Shown here: positions 22,179 to 29,088 of the stretch, piece by piece
Layout: every line of letters starts with the position of its first letter
Numbering within the stretch: position 1 is the first letter of the stretch
Assembly: GCA_963790475.1 (NCBI GenBank)
Contig: CAWBOS010000012.1
Coordinates: 416,001-480,000, forward strand
DNA length: 64,000 nt
Reading direction: 5' to 3'
From: an uncultured delta proteobacterium
GTDB lineage: Bacteria > Desulfobacterota > RBG-13-43-22
Notes under the pieces: model-generated
The model's database searches: none
Told to the model about the DNA's origin: nothing
Seen by the model: only the letters and a program-made list of their open reading frames with translations
Translations under genes and position numbers: made by a program

Positions 22179-23723
22179 ATGGTAAAACCAACCCTGTCGG
22201 AAAATGGCCTTCTCTTGAATGTCGGTGTGGTGGCCAAGGGAGAGCAATGTGTAACCCTCATGAGGGATCTTGGTGCCATTAAGCTTTCACGGCTGAGGAT
22301 CAGGCTGGCGGCAATCGCTACCACCACAAAGTCCGCGTCCTGTTATAAATACGCCGGAGAATTGGGGATCAGGGTATTTGAAAATTATCTTGACCTCTTA
22401 TCTTTGGAATATCTGGATCTAATTCTTGAGCTTACCGGAAGTAATCAAATTCTTTCGGAAATCATAAAACGCAAACCCGCCGCTATCGGCATTCTGGATC
22501 AGAAGTCTTCCTCGTTGTTTTTTGATATCGCCCACCTTTATGATCATATGGGGCAAAAGGATACGGAGATTACCCTGGCAACCTCCTTTGCTTCAACTTT
22601 ACTGGAGGCTTCCCCGGACGGCGTTCTTGTCCTTGACCGGGATTACCGCATCATCAACAGCAATAATTCACCTCTGGTCACCGGAGGGCTGGATCGAAAT
22701 GCCATTCTCGGTAAATTCTGTCATGAGGTGATGAGTCTGGTGCGGACGCCCTGTTACAATATAGATGCCTGTTGCTCGGTCCAGGAAACAATTAAAACCG
22801 GAAAGCCCGCCCGCAGAGTTAATGATCTGGCCCTTTCCGATGGGAGCACTCGAATCTGCCAGATCACGGCCTATCCCATCTTCAATCGCTTCAATGAGAT
22901 GGTGCAGTTTGTCATTACCGTAAGGGATATGACCCAGGAACTCAGCGAAAGAATCCTGTTACAAACTGAGGTCATTAAGAAAGACCTGACCCGTGTGGTC
23001 AAAGAAGACCGGCTGTCCTCTCTGGGCAGGCTTGTGGCTTCGGTTTGCCATGAGATCAACAATCCCATAACCAGCATTGTTACGTTTACTAAACTGGTTT
23101 TATCTTATCTTAAGGATAAGGATTCAACCGCCAGGCCGCCGGACCTGGAACGTTACCTGGAATTGTCTTTTCGTGAAGCGCTTCGATGCGGCGGCATCGT
23201 AAAAAACCTGCTGACTTTCGCCCGCCAGGATAATGTCGAGGCCACCCATATCGACATCATAGAAATGATAAACACCATATCGCTGTTGACCAGCCATCAG
23301 CTTCAACTGGCCGACGTGGTCTTTAGCGTTGAACTGCCAACTCCACCGTTCACTGCCTGGGGGGATTACGGTCAGATTCAGCAATGCCTGCTAAACCTGA
23401 TTTTTAATGCCATCGATGCCATGCCCAAAGGCGGGAGCCTGGTTATCAAAGGGGAGGAAGACGAGACCAAAGATTTCATTCGCCTGGAAGTGACGGACAC
23501 CGGCCAGGGGATCGATCCGGAACATTTGCATCAAATTTTTGAACCTTTTTTTACCACCAAAACTGATGGGAAAGGGGTTGGATTGGGGCTGGCCATGGTG
23601 TACGGTATCATTCATGAACATCATGGGGTAATAGAAGTTGACAGCATCCCCGAAAGGGGAACGACCTTTCGCATCAAGCTTCCTAAAAGTCCGATTGAGG
23701 AAGAGAGAGGAGCAGCGGCATGA
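22179..23723 (+). CDS. PAS-domain sensor histidine kinase (NtrB-like)
   Basis: HEINNP H-box, NLIFNA.DA N-box, DTGQGI, FEPFFTTK, GVGLGL. Confidence 0.93.
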   Translation: MVKPTLSENGLLLNVGVVAKGEQCVTLMRDLGAIKLSRLRIRLAAIATTTKSASCYKYAGELGIRVFENYLDLLSLEYLDLILELTGSNQILSEIIKRKPAAIGILDQKSSSLFFDIAHLYDHMGQKDTEITLATSFASTLLEASPDGVLVLDRDYRIINSNNSPLVTGGLDRNAILGKFCHEVMSLVRTPCYNIDACCSVQETIKTGKPARRVNDLALSDGSTRICQITAYPIFNRFNEMVQFVITVRDMTQELSERILLQTEVIKKDLTRVVKEDRLSSLGRLVASVCHEINNPITSIVTFTKLVLSYLKDKDSTARPPDLERYLELSFREALRCGGIVKNLLTFARQDNVEATHIDIIEMINTISLLTSHQLQLADVVFSVELPTPPFTAWGDYGQIQQCLLNLIFNAIDAMPKGGSLVIKGEEDETKDFIRLEVTDTGQGIDPEHLHQIFEPFFTTKTDGKGVGLGLAMVYGIIHEHHGVIEVDSIPERGTTFRIKLPKSPIEEERGAAA

Positions 23724-25063
23724 AAGCATCCACTCATATAATGGTTGTAGACGATGAGGAGACAATCTGTGAAGCGCTCATGGCCTGGTTCATCAAAGAC
23801 GGATATAAGGTTGACACCGCCTTATCCGGTGCAGAGGCCTTGGTCCATCTTGAAGAGAAAGATTTTGATATTTTCCTGGTGGATGTCAAAATGCCGGGGA
23901 TGGACGGCATCGAACTCCTGTCCCGAATCAAAGAAAAACATCCGGAAGCGGTTGTTATTATGATGACGGCCTATGGCTCGATCCAGACGGCAGTGGAAGC
24001 CATGAAGCGGGGGGCAGGAGACTACTTATGCAAACCATTTGATCCCGATTCATTGTCTCTGCTCATGGAGCGGGTGATGATGCATAAAAAATTGAAAAAA
24101 GAAAACATCGTCTTAAAAGAAAGGCTGCTTGAACAACAGGAAGAAGCCCTGGATGTTTTTATCGTTCATTCCGAACCCATGCGGAAAATATTTTCTACAG
24201 TGGATGAAGTGGCCCAATCTTCCGCTCCCATCCTGATTACCGGAGAAACGGGGGTCGGAAAGGATCTGGTTGCCAGAGCGATCCATCTAAGGAGTCCGCG
24301 GTCTTTCGGACCTTTTGTGGCAATCAATTGCGGGGCATTATCCGAGTCTCTCCTGGAAAGCGAACTGTTCGGTCATGAAAAGGGAGCTTTTACCGGTGCC
24401 CTTAAAACTAGGCGGGGGTGTTTGGAGATGGCGGACAATGGGACTCTTTTTTTAGACGAGATCGGAGAAATTTCATCCAAAGTGCAGATCAGTTTGTTAC
24501 GGGTGTTGGAAGAGAAGCGCTTTTTAAGGCTGGGCGGAAGCAATTCCGTGTCTTCGGATTTCAGGTTGATCACCGCCACCCATCGGGATCTTCCTCCCTT
24601 GATCAAGGAGAATCAATTCAGAGAGGATTTTTACTACCGCATCAATGTTATCACGATCCATATCCCCCCGTTGCGAGAACGTAAGGAAGACATTCCTGTC
24701 CTTTCTGATCATTTTCTCAAACGATACGTGGAAGAAACGGGAAAACATCTGGAAGGTTTTAGCGCAGGGGCCCTTGAACATCTGACGGCCTACCCCTGGC
24801 CCGGAAATGTCAGGGAATTGAAAAACGTTATCGAACGAGCTGTGGTAATAGCCAGGGGTCGGATGATCGGTGTCGAGGAGCTTAAGTTCTTAGATCCCGG
24901 GAAGAAGACAGTCGTTCCGTCGTCCGTTACCCTTGAGGAACTGGAAAAGAATCATATCGAATCAATCCTGGAATCATGCGATGGGAATATCAGCCATGCG
25001 GCGAAAAAACTGGGAATCAACCGGAGTACCCTGTCTCGAAAAATGAAACGATACCTTAAATAA
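23720..25063 (+). CDS. Sigma-54-dependent response regulator (NtrC family)
   Basis: REC (VDDE, D.KMPGMDG), GETGVGKD, GAFTGA, WPGNVREL, Fis HTH; ATGA overlap with kinase. Confidence 0.95.
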   Translation: MKASTHIMVVDDEETICEALMAWFIKDGYKVDTALSGAEALVHLEEKDFDIFLVDVKMPGMDGIELLSRIKEKHPEAVVIMMTAYGSIQTAVEAMKRGAGDYLCKPFDPDSLSLLMERVMMHKKLKKENIVLKERLLEQQEEALDVFIVHSEPMRKIFSTVDEVAQSSAPILITGETGVGKDLVARAIHLRSPRSFGPFVAINCGALSESLLESELFGHEKGAFTGALKTRRGCLEMADNGTLFLDEIGEISSKVQISLLRVLEEKRFLRLGGSNSVSSDFRLITATHRDLPPLIKENQFREDFYYRINVITIHIPPLRERKEDIPVLSDHFLKRYVEETGKHLEGFSAGALEHLTAYPWPGNVRELKNVIERAVVIARGRMIGVEELKFLDPGKKTVVPSSVTLEELEKNHIESILESCDGNISHAAKKLGINRSTLSRKMKRYLK

Positions 25064-25110: not shown

Positions 25111-25671
25111 TTGACTGCAGACCCACCGGTATCCGTTGAAGAAACCCATGTGGATCTTTTCCCCCTGGGCAGGATGGATATGACGGCCGTATCGGTAGTT
25201 GCGGCCAACTTGCAGGCGATCCTGGGGCTCAATACCCAGATTCACCAGGTTCAACCGGAACCTGACTATGCGTTCCTTCCCCGCAGGGGGCAATATGAGG
25301 CCGGAAAAATTATTAATGCCCTGGCGGCCCTTCCTGGTGGGCCCTGGCTCAGACTGGCAGTGGTTGGTGTTGATATTTACACGCCAATCCTGACCTTTGT
25401 TTTCGGAGAATCACAATTGGGCGGAAAAGCTGCCGTTATTTCTTTGTTTCGAGTCCATAGCAAAAACAGGGATAAGACCTACAACAGAATCGCAAAAATA
25501 GCTATTCATGAAATCGGGCACCTGTTGGGCATTGTCCACTGCCAGACGATGGATTGCCTGATGAGATTTTCCAACAGTCTGGAAAAGCTGGATGACCTGC
25601 CCCTGAGGTTCTGTCCGGCCTGTGAATACGAAGCCAGGAGACGTTTGAGACATCTGTTCGGCAAACTTTAA
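25111..25671 (+). CDS. Archaemetzincin-family Zn metalloprotease (M54)
   Basis: HEIGHLLGIVHC-x4-CLM-x-FSNS...LD...FCPAC, FVFGE; exact start uncertain. Confidence 0.85.
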   Translation: MTADPPVSVEETHVDLFPLGRMDMTAVSVVAANLQAILGLNTQIHQVQPEPDYAFLPRRGQYEAGKIINALAALPGGPWLRLAVVGVDIYTPILTFVFGESQLGGKAAVISLFRVHSKNRDKTYNRIAKIAIHEIGHLLGIVHCQTMDCLMRFSNSLEKLDDLPLRFCPACEYEARRRLRHLFGKL

Positions 25672-25683
25672 GGGTAAGGTCTA

Positions 25684-25721
25684 AGGTATAAGGTTTAAGG
25701 AAAACCTTAAACCTTATACCT
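25684..25721. terminator. Perfect 17-bp hairpin of heptamer units between convergent genes
   Basis: AGGTATAAGGTTTAAGG-AAAA-CCTTAAACCTTATACCT. Confidence 0.6.
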
Positions 25722-25770: not shown

Positions 25771-26694
25771 CTATAGTGAGTGCAGAAATTCATTCACCAA
25801 CCGTTCCCAACCGATTTCAGGAACTTCGCTAAATATATCTTTAAGGGCCTCGCCGCCTGTGGCTGCCATTTTATACTGCATTTCCTCCCCGCGAACCTCA
25901 CCCATCAATGTTTGAAGACGGAAGAATTCGTCATCGATCCAGGAAAGACTTTCCTGGCCGAAGAAGAGATTTTTGAGGTTATTGCGAAGGGAAGAGGGTT
26001 GGATCACCATTAGCCATCCTTCTCCGTAAGGATCCTCGTTGGCAATGGTGGTTTTATTCAGCAGTTTTTGATTTACGGCAACGACTTTTCCATCCACGGG
26101 GCTGAGGACCGGAGCTTCTTTCCCATTGCGTTTTAACACGGCCTGAGGACGGTTTTGACCGACGCTGGATCCCAGACCCGGAATTTGAATTTCATTCTGG
26201 GGTCCCAGCAGTCGAAGGGCGAAGTCGTCGATGCCGATCCGAACCCGTCCCCCGTATTCCACCCTGGCCCAGGCGTGTCCGTAATGATAATAATGATCGC
26301 GGGCGACATTGAAACCGGAAGCGGCATCCACAACGGGCGGTTTAAGATTCGGCAGATAACTGGCATCTTCAATCATCTGATCAAAAGGACATTTTACACA
26401 GTTATATCCTTGCGAACATAACCCGTAAGATATGCGTCCGCTCAGCATATGTCGGCATTTGCCCTGGTTCATGAGAAGAAGCATTCTGGGGGGCCTGGGG
26501 TCTGTTTTCCCATCAACTTTTCTCTTCTCCTCGAATTTGGCCAGCACCTGATTATCCATAACGCATCCGAGACAGTCAAAAGCATTGATGCATTTGGTAG
26601 GCTTGATTACCCCGGCTCGTCCCCATACACATTGATTATTGACCATTGAAAAAACTACAGGCTGTCTGACCCCTTTTTGTTCATTCTTTTTCAT
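25771..26694 (-). CDS. GcvH-like protein with N-terminal tandem Cys4 motifs
   Basis: H.WARVE...VRIGIDDFA, SPVDGKVVAVN, N.DPYGEGWL; two CX12CX5CX2C motifs; AAAGGAG RBS. Confidence 0.85.
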   Translation of the reverse strand: MKKNEQKGVRQPVVFSMVNNQCVWGRAGVIKPTKCINAFDCLGCVMDNQVLAKFEEKRKVDGKTDPRPPRMLLLMNQGKCRHMLSGRISYGLCSQGYNCVKCPFDQMIEDASYLPNLKPPVVDAASGFNVARDHYYHYGHAWARVEYGGRVRIGIDDFALRLLGPQNEIQIPGLGSSVGQNRPQAVLKRNGKEAPVLSPVDGKVVAVNQKLLNKTTIANEDPYGEGWLMVIQPSSLRNNLKNLFFGQESLSWIDDEFFRLQTLMGEVRGEEMQYKMAATGGEALKDIFSEVPEIGWERLVNEFLHSL

Positions 26695-26759: not shown

Positions 26760-26880
26760 GAGGTTCTTGCAAATCTCCCAAATTTCGTCACACCGGCGAA
26801 AGCCGGTGTCCAGAATGCATTGAAAAGACTGGATTCCGGCTTTCGCCGGAATGACATCACTGGACTTTTGCAAGAGGCTC
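26760..26880. mobile_element. 121-bp MITE with REP-like double-hairpin core
   Basis: Imperfect TIR GAGGTTCTTGCAAA / TTTGCAAGAGGCTC; ACTG on both flanks; core GTCACACCGGCGAAAGCCGGTGTCCAG..CTGGATTCCGGCTTTCGCCGGAATGAC. Confidence 0.75.
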
Positions 26881-26893
26881 ACTGATCATCCAT

Positions 26894-26910
26894 TGCAGGT
26901 TCTGGGCCAA
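26894..26910 (-). promoter_or_regulatory. Sigma-54 (-24/-12) promoter for GcvH-like gene
   Basis: TTGGCCCAGAACCTGCA: GG-N10-GC spacing. Confidence 0.65.
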
Positions 26911-27086
26911 TCATTGAAACAAAAGAGTTCCCATCATGTAACTGATTAAAGTCATAATGAATATTAAAACAGGGGCCAAATGGGATTAGGCGAGAAAAGG
27001 ACTTGACCGGAGACTGTTCTCTGCTTCATTTCACAGCAGATTTTTAAAGGAAAGTTGTTATTTAATAAATTTCAATGAGTTGTAAT

Positions 27087-27126
27087 GATGCCACATTCTG
27101 CATAGCGCGATGCATAATGCGGCATC
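27087..27126. promoter_or_regulatory. Palindromic candidate enhancer (UAS)
   Basis: GATGCCACATTCTGCAT-N6-ATGCATAATGCGGCATC, 15/17 inverted repeat; IHF-like TTTCAATGAGTTG at 27070-27082. Confidence 0.5.
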
Positions 27127-27218: not shown

Positions 27219-27560
27219 TTACTTTTTCTTTTTCTTGACCGGTAGCGATATGGCGAATTCAACGCCTTTCATAACCCATTTTCTCAGATCCTTATCGGAC
27301 TCAGTTCCTTTCTCACCAACGTAAAGAAAACCCTTCAACGGTTTCCCGGTAAAATCCATTTTTCGCACATAGGGTTGGTAAAGCATTTTTTCAGAGGAGT
27401 CCGGTTCCATACGGATCATCAGGTCATCGTTCACCAAGCCTAAGGCCATATTGCCGTTAACCAGGAAACAAAGCCCCCCGAACATTTTCTTTTCTGACAG
27501 ACCTTCAACTTTTTCGAGGATCTTTCGAACACGAATCGCAAGTTCATCGTCAAATGACAT
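27219..27560 (-). CDS. TfoX N-terminal domain protein
   Basis: EKKMFGGLCFLVNGNM, MDFTGKPLKGF, L.KWV; start trimmed to ATG 27560. Confidence 0.85.
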   Translation of the reverse strand: MSFDDELAIRVRKILEKVEGLSEKKMFGGLCFLVNGNMALGLVNDDLMIRMEPDSSEKMLYQPYVRKMDFTGKPLKGFLYVGEKGTESDKDLRKWVMKGVEFAISLPVKKKKK

Positions 27561-27566
27561 TTTTTC

Positions 27567-27637
27567 CCTCAAGGGTATGCTTCACCGGCATGTTCGATGT
27601 CCCCATATAGAACCTACGGTGGAAGCGATGGTTTGCC
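27567..27637 (-). mobile_element. Degenerate integron attC site
   Basis: R'' GGCAAAC-N5-L'' CTTCCACC...L' GGTGAAG-N6-R' CTTGAGG (GTT changed to CTT). Confidence 0.6.
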
Positions 27638-27647
27638 AGAATGTTCG

Positions 27648-28076
27648 TTACTTCAACGGGTTTCTCCACTTGATCCCAGGAAAGCGAGAGAAGTCGGTAT
27701 CGGTGGAAATTAGTTCACAACCGTGTTCACTTGCCAGAGCGGCCAGATGCGCATCGGTCACAAGGTTGGCAATGGCTTGGCCCTCAACCAACATTTTTTG
27801 AAAGATGATCCAGTGCCGGTCGGTAGGATGAATGATGCGCGTGCAGGGTTGATCCAACCAGCTCTGCACACGAGAGAGCGCCTGGTCGAGAGACAGGGGG
27901 TGCTCAAAGACACGCGGATTCGTGCCGATGCGGATGAACGCCCCAAGGACGGTCCAGCAAAGACATACCGGCGAGGCACCAGACAACTGGGCATCCCACC
28001 ATTCGCGGGCCTCCATATGGTGAGGACTCTGCCGGTCTTCGGCATACAAAAGGATATTGGCATCCACGAGGATCAC
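27648..28076 (-). CDS. vapC: VapC PIN-domain toxin
   Basis: ILVDANILLYA, NLVTDAHLAALA.EHG, STDTDFSRF. Confidence 0.9.
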   Translation of the reverse strand: MILVDANILLYAEDRQSPHHMEAREWWDAQLSGASPVCLCWTVLGAFIRIGTNPRVFEHPLSLDQALSRVQSWLDQPCTRIIHPTDRHWIIFQKMLVEGQAIANLVTDAHLAALASEHGCELISTDTDFSRFPGIKWRNPLK

Positions 28077-28321
28077 CGGTGATCTTCCCCTTCGATCTGA
28101 GATAGGAGCGCCTGGATGTTGTCCAGATTCCTCCCGGCTTTCAATCCCATCTTGTGGGGGCGGGTGTGATAGGGTCGGGTTTGCGGAGAGGTTTCTTCAA
28201 CGATCTGCAATCCGGTACGCAGCGCCTCATTAACCACACGCCGAAAGGGCGCACGGAGTTTTGCCGCAACGGCTTTCGCTTTGTCCAGAACATCGTCGTC
28301 TATGGTAAGTGTTGTTCTCAT
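28073..28321 (-). CDS. vapB: VapB antitoxin (RHH)
   Basis: MRTTLTIDDDV..., VVNEALR; 4-nt overlap with vapC. Confidence 0.85.
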   Translation of the reverse strand: MRTTLTIDDDVLDKAKAVAAKLRAPFRRVVNEALRTGLQIVEETSPQTRPYHTRPHKMGLKAGRNLDNIQALLSQIEGEDHR

Positions 28322-28455: not shown

Positions 28456-29088
28456 TCAATATGTCTCTCTTAACTCGTTAAAAACAAGACTATTTTCAAG
28501 AGAAGAGTTTTTCGCTATGATCTCCCAAGGAGGAAGGAGCTTATCTTCTGTTCCTTTAGTTAGGTTTCTTTGGAACCAGTACCCATTTTCGAAAGAAAGC
28601 TGTATCTTTTTTCCACCGACTGGACGCTCTGAATAATGCCCCAGTCGCTCAATACCCCTACCAGAAATTTTTATTGCTGGATATAAACCACCAACAGTCA
28701 TTTCTCCTTGTTTTTCAAGATATCTTCGAATAACGCCACGCAGTTCCAATGCTTCGTAAAATGAATTTCCACAATCAAAGGCAAATATGGAGTCGTAGTA
28801 CATATCTATAACTTCTCTCGCTTTTTCACCAGACCCGATTACAACGTAGTTCAGCGGTTTAAAAGGAACCATTTTAGAAGAAGGAGATTGGAGAACGTAC
28901 AATATCCCTGTTGAAGTACCAGACAACGAGATTTTCTCATATTGGTCCGGTATTTTTAGTAGTTCTATTATGAAATAGGGGATATCACTACACAAAAGAG
29001 GTTCTTCCTGATTTTCAGAAGTTCCTATTGGCCAAGAAACTGGTATCTTAAAAGAAGCCCCTTTTTTAAAATTTTTTATGGTTGACAA
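28456..29088 (-). CDS. Hypothetical AT-rich cassette ORF, probably 5'-truncated
   Basis: 210-aa ORF ending before attC; nominal TTG start overlaps the rplU -35 box; YVVIGSG and TVGG motifs. Confidence 0.5.
   Translation of the reverse strand: MSTIKNFKKGASFKIPVSWPIGTSENQEEPLLCSDIPYFIIELLKIPDQYEKISLSGTSTGILYVLQSPSSKMVPFKPLNYVVIGSGEKAREVIDMYYDSIFAFDCGNSFYEALELRGVIRRYLEKQGEMTVGGLYPAIKISGRGIERLGHYSERPVGGKKIQLSFENGYWFQRNLTKGTEDKLLPPWEIIAKNSSLENSLVFNELRETY

Follow-up and report, generated by a model that had tools for sequence, protein, structure and literature searches.

A GcvH-fold protein lacking the lipoyl lysine belongs to a conserved regulatory module and is predicted to dock on a neighbouring archaemetzincin

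Introduction

In regulatory systems of the PspF/PspA type, a sigma-54 activator is encoded beside its main target gene. Proteins resembling the glycine cleavage H-protein (GcvH) are also used outside glycine cleavage: the LbpA proteins are the lipoate-binding GcvH-like proteins of sHdr sulfur oxidation and, according to the available part of the report by Cao et al. (2018, PMC6067878), the lipoyl lysine is kept in all 95 of them. The M54 archaemetzincins form a third point of reference, and the available part of Graef et al. (PMC3427221) describes the solved archaeal members as inactive on standard substrates and their biological role as little known.

Here we describe a locus at which elements related to all three systems meet. 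It lies in a 64,000-nucleotide stretch of DNA from an uncultured delta proteobacterium (hereafter the window) and encodes a GcvH-like protein without the lipoyl lysine. Our literature searches returned no paper on this lysine-less family and no experiment on any of its members, and the available parts of PMC9723716 and PMC11887813 contain nothing that bears on it.

Results

An intact H-protein fold without the lipoyl lysine

The open reading frame at 25771..26694 (minus strand, stop codon included), delimited by ORF calling, Pfam and the family alignment, encodes a protein of 307 residues and begins with an ATG that is preceded 7 nt upstream by AAGGAG. A pseudogene or decaying gcvH is ruled out by the intact frame and by relatives that are 61-93% identical among the best 120 of 681 matches. 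Residues about 125-245 (25960..26322, minus strand) form a GcvH-fold domain by Pfam, phmmer, AF2 and Foldseek, with the Pfam GCV_H match covering residues 135-244 (E 5.1e-21). The AF2 model of the whole protein has a mean pLDDT of 83.2, rising above 90 across most of the GcvH domain. The original prediction had assigned the protein to the GcvH fold, and structural alignment with the E. coli H-protein (Foldseek, 3a8k_E, target-normalised TM-score 0.94, rmsd 1.4 Å) found that fold intact; 22 Foldseek matches were obtained at E <= 0.001, every listed one of which is an H-protein or H-protein-like.

The same prediction held that glycine occupies the lipoyl-lysine position, with a lysine shifted by one, and that the protein is not a lipoyl carrier. 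Indeed, in phmmer alignments the lipoyl lysine of the T. thermophilus (1onl) and E. coli (3a8i) H-proteins falls opposite Gly191 (codon 26122..26124, minus strand), and Lys192 follows next. Reading the lipoyl position in relatives as the eighth residue before the proline of the SPxxG motif, we found glycine in 98, lysine in one and other residues in 20 of the 119 motif matches among 120 close relatives; across 150 cluster representatives, lysine stands there in 4 of 144 motif matches. The position of Lys192 is itself variable (lysine in 60 and asparagine in 43 of the 119 close relatives), and there is thus no conserved shifted lysine. The protein also scores below every curated gcvH cut-off, reaching 66.5 bits against 115.85 for TIGR00527 and 79 against 117 for NF002270. 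Further GCV_H genes are present in the host genome, one of them with a canonical ESSKV hairpin. With respect to gene context, a scan of 16 ORFs in the 14.9-30.9 kb interval of the window detected no GCV_T or GcvP domain, and the 13 neighbour-cluster representatives that were scanned carry no gcvT/gcvP-type domain either; the four commonest neighbour clusters are the regulator, kinase, M54 and HdrL-like genes described below.

The gene is accordingly not a gcvH, as it falls short in three defining respects: lysine, curated score and gene context. With the acceptor lysine missing across the clade and the TIGR00527 score so far below its threshold, the view that the protein cannot carry lipoate is well supported by sequence. 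Mis-annotation as glycine cleavage H had likewise been anticipated, and relatives do bear the name "glycine cleavage system H lipoate-binding protein" in public records, a naming by which reconstructions of the metabolism of sulfate reducers and syntrophs can be led astray.

A conserved kinase, regulator and archaemetzincin module

Three genes on the plus strand lie beside the GcvH-like gene: a cytoplasmic PAS histidine kinase with three conserved cysteines in its PAS domain (22179..23723; Pfam, synteny, alignment), a sigma-54-dependent response regulator (23720..25063; Pfam, translation, synteny) and an M54 archaemetzincin with the HExxHxxGxxH motif, Cys4 site and Met-turn (25111..25671; Pfam, alignment), which is also the predicted partner in the complex model presented below. 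The PAS cysteines C181, C192 and C199 of the kinase are conserved at 83-87%. Its N-terminus (residues 1-140) gave a best Pfam match of only E 0.068; a Rossmann-like domain in this region was considered and dropped, as it was an impression from reading the sequence only.

To place this arrangement in context, we gathered 80 related loci from genome contigs, nearly all labelled as Thermodesulfobacteriota or "delta proteobacterium" MAGs. BLAST clustering of neighbours within 6 kb covered 76 loci (75 fetched loci and the window) and placed an NtrC-type regulator at 58, a PAS kinase at 54, an M54 gene at 52 and an HdrL-like gene at 14 of them, with an HdrD-like gene in the same range at 4 of the 76. 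A profile search for M54, which is more sensitive than the ORF-filtered clustering, detected the protease within 6 kb in 43 of the 49 loci flanked on each side by 4 kb or more (median gap 187 nt), 39 of these 43 neighbours lying within 1.1 kb; the other 6 of the 49 full loci have no nearby M54 gene. The commonest layout, found at 26 loci, is that of the window, with kinase, regulator and M54 on one strand and the GcvH-like gene convergent to them, while at 11 loci M54 lies upstream of the GcvH-like gene on the same strand. The gene is therefore one member of a module conserved in the Thermodesulfobacteriota, alongside the PAS histidine kinase, the sigma-54 response regulator and the M54 archaemetzincin.

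Of 401 genomes sampled from the phylum, 89 (63 of 254 genera) encode the N-terminal cysteine module of the protein (see below) and 153 encode M54, the two coinciding in 78, so that 78 of the 89 genomes with the cysteine domain also hold M54; related genomes are not independent in these counts, which are given without a test. In at least 40 of the 89 genomes both genes reside on one contig within 5 kb. Conversely, 75 of the 153 M54-bearing genomes lack the cysteine domain, and 19 of 20 M54 genes sampled from such genomes have no GcvH-like gene within 4 kb. That every M54 gene in the phylum has a GcvH-like neighbour is thus ruled out (1 of 20 in genomes free of the cysteine domain). Since M54 occurs elsewhere without such a partner, the link concerns one divergent M54 subgroup.

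A sigma-54 type promoter with upstream dyads

Upstream of the GcvH-like gene, motif and conservation in relatives point to a sigma-54 type -24/-12 promoter at 26894..26909 (minus strand), which reads TGGCCC-N5-CTGCA and has the GG-N10-GC core. In relatives, the best GG-N10-GC site clusters 120-200 nt before the codon of Cys22. Using a fixed 210-nt window and random windows from the same loci as controls, we found that 46 of 72 upstream windows hold a site with a score of 8 or more out of 11, versus 79 of 1377 controls, and that a score of 9 or more is attained in 29 of 72 versus 20 of 1377. Farther upstream, 112-232 nt from the promoter, three TGC-Nn-GCA dyads (27021..27126, minus strand) are candidate activator sites on the strength of motif and enrichment: dyads with N5, N8 or N11 occur upstream of the promoter at 1.4-1.7 per kb versus about 0.27 across the loci (5-6 times), those with N6, N7, N9 or N12 at 0.13-0.40 per kb, and N10 is intermediate (0.67).

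The regulator encoded next door combines a receiver domain, an AAA+ domain (Sigma54_activat, E 1e-66) with GAFTGA in its translation and HTH_8, and rpoN is present in the host genome (match E 7e-61). We conclude, from these sequence features, that the gene is probably a sigma-54-dependent target of the neighbouring regulator.

Comparison with the closest relatives and blastn revealed that the 5' leader carries a repeat-element insertion of about 120 nt (26762..26886, minus strand) between the promoter and the conserved part of the leader. It is absent from the two closest loci, is a member of a palindromic repeat family for which blastn gave 176 matches in the host genome, and includes a terminator-like hairpin on the coding strand (26852..26833). 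The insertion with its hairpin could lower expression, which may differ here from that in relatives.

Predicted docking of the C-terminal loop in the archaemetzincin active site

Several features identify the M54 neighbour as a genuine archaemetzincin: its profile matches archaemetzincin 2x7m at E 6e-42, it carries the signature HEXXHXXGXXHCX4CXMX17CXXC, and residues H133, E134, H137, H143, C144, C149, M151, C168 and C171 are invariant in 41 sequences.

When the complex of the GcvH-like protein with this protease was folded from our own unpaired alignments (A3 and A1), three predictions gave ipSAE values of 0.82, 0.84 and 0.85, compared to 0.00 for the best control. The models contain 93-95 contacts, the partner pLDDT is never below 83, and 96% or more of the contacts are shared between runs. 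The ipSAE mark that we used is reached by 116 of 157 solved complexes and by 2 of 215 mismatched pairs, a rough guide here, since our own alignments were used. Five PDB sequences match the M54 profile, named archaemetzincin, zinc peptidase or MMP-16 only, and we know of no solved complex of an archaemetzincin with a GcvH-like protein; it thus seems unlikely that the model merely reproduces a known structure.

On the protease side, the modelled interface consists of residues 91-105 together with H133, E134, H137 and H143. Residues 91-105 align with a conserved segment of solved archaemetzincin 2x7m, and in our reading they correspond to the bulge-edge segment and the edge strand, the substrate-binding elements described in the available part of Graef et al. 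(PMC3427221). On the side of the GcvH-like protein, the modelled contacts come from one face of helix 247-268, from residues 124-127 and from a loop at residues 273-284 (25843..25878, minus strand) that includes a conserved AAxGGE motif and is predicted, from the complex model and alignment, to sit in the active-site cleft. Residues 274-277 run antiparallel to protease residues 103-100 over the HExxH zinc site in the model, and an antiparallel orientation of substrate on the edge strand is what the available part of PMC3427221 implies. Loop residues 278-280 have a pLDDT below 50 in the free model. Conserved interface residues in alignment A1, which holds 40 full-length relatives with identity down to 26%, include G127 (40/40), L260 (39/40), G280 (39/40) and G281 (36/40). 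The loop is accordingly predicted by the model to dock in the archaemetzincin active site in the manner of a substrate.

We then compared 41 module-linked M54 proteins with 19 orphan M54 proteins and found that positions of the predicted interface separate the two groups. At position 93 the module-linked proteins have isoleucine (37 of 41) and the orphans glycine, glutamate or serine; at position 95 they have threonine or serine versus asparagine in all 19 orphans; and at position 130 they have isoleucine or valine versus glutamate in all 19. Positions 102 (glutamine, 31 of 41), 104 (glycine, 32 of 41) and 105 (glycine, 40 of 41) of the module-linked proteins are variable in the orphans. Both the active-site docking, as modelled, and the subgroup-specific protease residues appear to be new here.

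A stable core with interchangeable N-terminal heads

The loop belongs to a conserved helical C-terminal domain (residues 246-307; 25774..25959, minus strand), defined by alignments and AF2, that is absent from canonical GcvH. Besides L260, G280 and G281, its conserved residues in A1 are E256 and D286 (36/40 each), W296 (39/40) and F303 (38/40). In a search of 1.84 billion representatives, many matches share residues ~125-305 alone, that is, the GcvH domain and the tail. Among the 150 best representatives, 48 have at least two cysteine motifs, 39 have one and 63 have none. The N-terminal position can be held by Fer4 diclusters (P0164, P0166), by Fer2_4 and Fer4 (P0224), by Fer4, FlpD/MvhD and Molydop_binding (P0174, P0189), by a receiver domain (P0192) or, judged by eye, by a hydrophobic N-terminus (P0207, P0237, P0268). 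In P0211 the order is Fer2_4, Fer4, one cysteine motif and then GcvH, and in P0196 three GcvH domains precede FAD-oxidase and CCG domains. Because the heads vary, the stable unit is the GcvH domain with its tail, and the cysteine module is one of several interchangeable heads; because the core also occurs without any cysteines, its function is independent of the metal site.

A duplicated four-cysteine module that may bind metal

All eight cysteines of the protein (residues 22, 35, 41, 44, 80, 93, 99 and 102) lie inside two CX12CX5CX2C motifs, the first at residues 22-44 (26563..26631, minus strand) and the second at residues 80-102 (26389..26457, minus strand), each recognised by a motif script, alignments and repeat homology. 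The script thus bore out the predicted pair of motifs with identical spacing, and the letters quoted for them match the translation. C22, W24, C35, C41, C44, C93, C99 and C102 are invariant in A1, where C80 is kept in at least 90% of sequences, and all eight cysteines are invariant in an alignment restricted to the N-terminal part (A2; 34 sequences). This conservation argues that the motifs did not arise by chance. In some relatives, CX13 replaces CX12 or CX4 replaces CX5 in the second motif. Since hhalign detects homology between the two repeats (probability 97.8%, E 7e-13), the module is an internal duplication.

Searches with this part of the protein gave no assignment to a described domain. 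Fer4 did not match the 307-residue protein in Pfam at E <= 1, and the spacing is not the ferredoxin-type CX2CX2CX3C of Fer4 (2x[4Fe-4S]). The isolated N-terminal domain folded poorly (AF2 pLDDT 60.1); its comparison with solved folds by VIA-align (48,161 chains) produced no match (best Z 3.0), its profile found plasmepsin X alone among PDB sequences (E 0.57), and residues 1-125 retrieved nothing but unnamed clusters from the ESM Atlas (best score 0.82). The module is therefore a candidate new metal-binding domain of a kind absent from the libraries searched.

The original prediction had also proposed Fe-S or Zn binding, and either is plausible for this module. We lean toward Fe-S clusters, with zinc the less probable occupant, on the grounds that relatives have classical Fe-S domains at the same N-terminal position. 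The strongest competing explanation keeps the adaptor and its protease partner but treats the two Cys4 motifs as structural zinc sites without redox chemistry. Helices begin at residues 45 and 103 in the AF2 model, directly after the CxxC pairs; zinc sites, too, typically have a CxxC that leads straight into a helix, the arrangement resembling zinc knuckles; the missing Fer4-type Pfam match fits zinc as well. Moreover, a Cys4 zinc site is present in the partner archaemetzincin itself, according to the alignment and the available part of PMC3427221. Pointing the other way are the true Fe-S domains of relatives, above all P0211, in which the cysteine motif comes directly after Fer2_4 and Fer4, and the HdrL-like genes that adjoin 14 of the 76 loci. 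The family also resides in the Thermodesulfobacteriota, which are largely anaerobic. We regard purely structural zinc sites as a real possibility, albeit of clearly limited probability.

Discussion

We propose that the protein consists of three parts, a duplicated four-cysteine module, a GcvH barrel-sandwich domain and a helical C-terminal domain, and that it acts as a metal-binding adaptor, probably with Fe-S, which forms the output of a two-component system and either serves the archaemetzincin as a substrate or regulates it. We hold this explanation as a whole to be somewhat probable. The protein had been predicted to be a sensor or adaptor, a role that agrees with the sigma-54 promoter, the dedicated two-component system, the predicted archaemetzincin complex and the C-terminal domain.

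In mechanistic terms, the two-component system would sense a cytoplasmic signal, as suggested by a kinase that has cysteines in its PAS domain and no N-terminal domain recognised by Pfam, and this signal may be of redox nature. The PAS kinase and NtrC-type regulator would then activate the sigma-54 promoter, making the GcvH-like protein their dedicated output. Its cysteine head would bind metal, more likely as two Fe-S clusters, while the GcvH domain, having lost the lysine, would serve as a protein-binding scaffold rather than as a cofactor carrier. The C-terminal domain is predicted to dock on the archaemetzincin encoded in the kinase-regulator operon, and the flexible AAxGGE loop would lie across the edge strand and zinc site of the protease, where it might be cut or might occupy or regulate the enzyme. 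Between these two outcomes we incline slightly toward cleavage. The Hdr-type links of relatives suggest that redox metabolism may be the downstream field.

A more specific version of this scheme is a proteolytic switch under signal control, formed by the four genes, which we put forward tentatively: the induced Fe-S GcvH-like protein would be cut in the AAxGGE loop by the archaemetzincin, and removal of its last ~30 residues would switch a redox adaptor for Hdr-type enzymes on or off. If true, the protein would, to our knowledge, be the first physiological substrate identified for a prokaryotic archaemetzincin, with the H-protein fold put to a new use. Already the predicted cognate partner, with a defined loop placed in the active site, makes the question of the archaemetzincin's role directly testable with two small soluble proteins.

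Alternatively, the protein could be an electron-transfer subunit of Hdr-type (HdrL/MvhD/HdrD) complexes, in which its clusters relay electrons, the core serves for docking and the contact with the protease is irrelevant or false. The fusions of the core to FlpD/MvhD with Fer4 and Molydop_binding, to FAD-oxidase with CCG and to Fer4 speak for such a role, as do the HdrL-like genes (Fer4_20, Pyr_redox_2 and a second flavin domain) and HdrD-like genes within 6 kb of a minority of the 76 loci. On the other hand, the 16 ORFs scanned in the 14.9-30.9 kb interval of the window include no Hdr-type gene, and HdrL is linked in only 10 of 50 full loci, compared to 43 for the regulator, 40 for the kinase and 36 for M54 (43 of 49 by profile). 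The receiver-domain fusion P0192 and the members without cysteines also suit signalling or docking better, and we consider a primary role in electron transfer unlikely. It is highly improbable that the protein works as a carrier of lipoyl or other acyl groups on the shifted Lys192 or on some other lysine: Lys192 does adjoin the canonical position and the fold is fully GcvH-like, but Lys192 is not conserved, a one-residue shift of the lysine abolishes the lipoylation of lipoyl domains, none of the gcvH model cut-offs is reached, the 16 ORFs scanned around the gene encode no GCV_T or GcvP domain, and the host genome has a canonical ESSKV paralog.

The adaptor that we favour can be set against each of the known systems. 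With GcvH (PF01597, TIGR00527) it shares the barrel-sandwich fold and the HxW, DDF, SPxxG and PYxxGW motifs. It differs in that the lipoyl lysine is gone and the score is below the equivalog cut-off, in about 125 extra N-terminal and 62 extra C-terminal residues, and in a regulatory and protease gene context instead of gcvT/gcvP. We know of no LbpA protein with Cys4 repeats, with such a C-terminal domain or in a sigma-54 or M54 context. Like LbpA, the family is GcvH-like outside glycine cleavage, and its relatives are linked or fused to Hdr-type proteins; unlike LbpA, it lacks the lysine whose conservation characterises those proteins in the available part of PMC6067878. The M54 neighbour is a clear member of the archaemetzincins (AmzA; PDB 2x7m, 3zvs, 4axq), with all catalytic and Cys4 residues invariant, and differs from the solved ones in having a specific protein partner predicted by modelling, for a divergent bacterial M54 subgroup. 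Finally, as in the PspF/PspA type, an enhancer-binding protein is encoded beside a single, putatively sigma-54-dependent gene with upstream dyads; here, however, no sign was seen that the output protein feeds back on the activator, which is equipped with a receiver domain and paired with a cognate kinase.

A repeat element in the leader of the GcvH-like gene

The 5' leader of the GcvH-like gene carries an insertion, a palindromic repeat element of ~120 nt (26762-26886, minus strand) that lies downstream of the sigma-54 promoter and upstream of the ribosome-binding site, and that includes a terminator-like hairpin (26852..26833). This element is absent from the two closest loci (L007 and L008), and a 135-nt query spanning it returned 176 blastn matches in the genome (E < 1e-3). 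At the other end of the gene, an inverted repeat whose 17-bp arms match perfectly around a 4-nt loop (25684-25721) separates it from the convergent archaemetzincin gene and may serve both genes as a shared bidirectional terminator.

Neighbouring genes and the module kinase

Immediately upstream of the promoter region lies an ORF with a TfoX_N domain (27219-27572), and farther upstream are a toxin-antitoxin pair composed of VapC (PIN) and a VapB-like protein (27648-28321) and a 210-aa ORF (28456-29088) that matched nothing in Pfam at E <= 0.001, all on the minus strand. The module histidine kinase (22179-23723, plus strand) has an N-terminus of ~135 residues without a Pfam match. Its PAS domain contains three cysteines, C181, C192 and C199, that are conserved in 83-87% of 47 sequences and possibly form a metal or redox sensor site.

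Archaemetzincins and GcvH relatives elsewhere

Twenty orphan archaemetzincin loci (L088-L107) were sampled, one in each of 20 further genomes of the phylum, and 19 of them have no GcvH-like neighbour. Against Pfam M54 the orphan enzymes reach better scores than those linked to the module, from which E130 and N95 set them apart.

In the 401-genome sample the number of matches per genome reached four at most. The GcvH-like family is present in several genomes as paralogues in tandem, ~1 kb apart, or as a full gene adjoined by small ORFs (76-150 aa) that have one Cys motif (e.g. genome:contig:positions G338:C1:1926695-1927973, G140:C11:26245-27490 and G369:C240:19515-20561).

Among the other GcvH paralogs of the genome that holds the window, L002 (~150 aa; G000:C15:549387-549749, minus strand) is a second lysine-less protein, with ESQGE in the hairpin where ESVK is expected and a C-terminal poly-Glu tail. 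The near-identical paralogs L001 and L004 read ESGKW, and L003 is canonical, with ESSKV.
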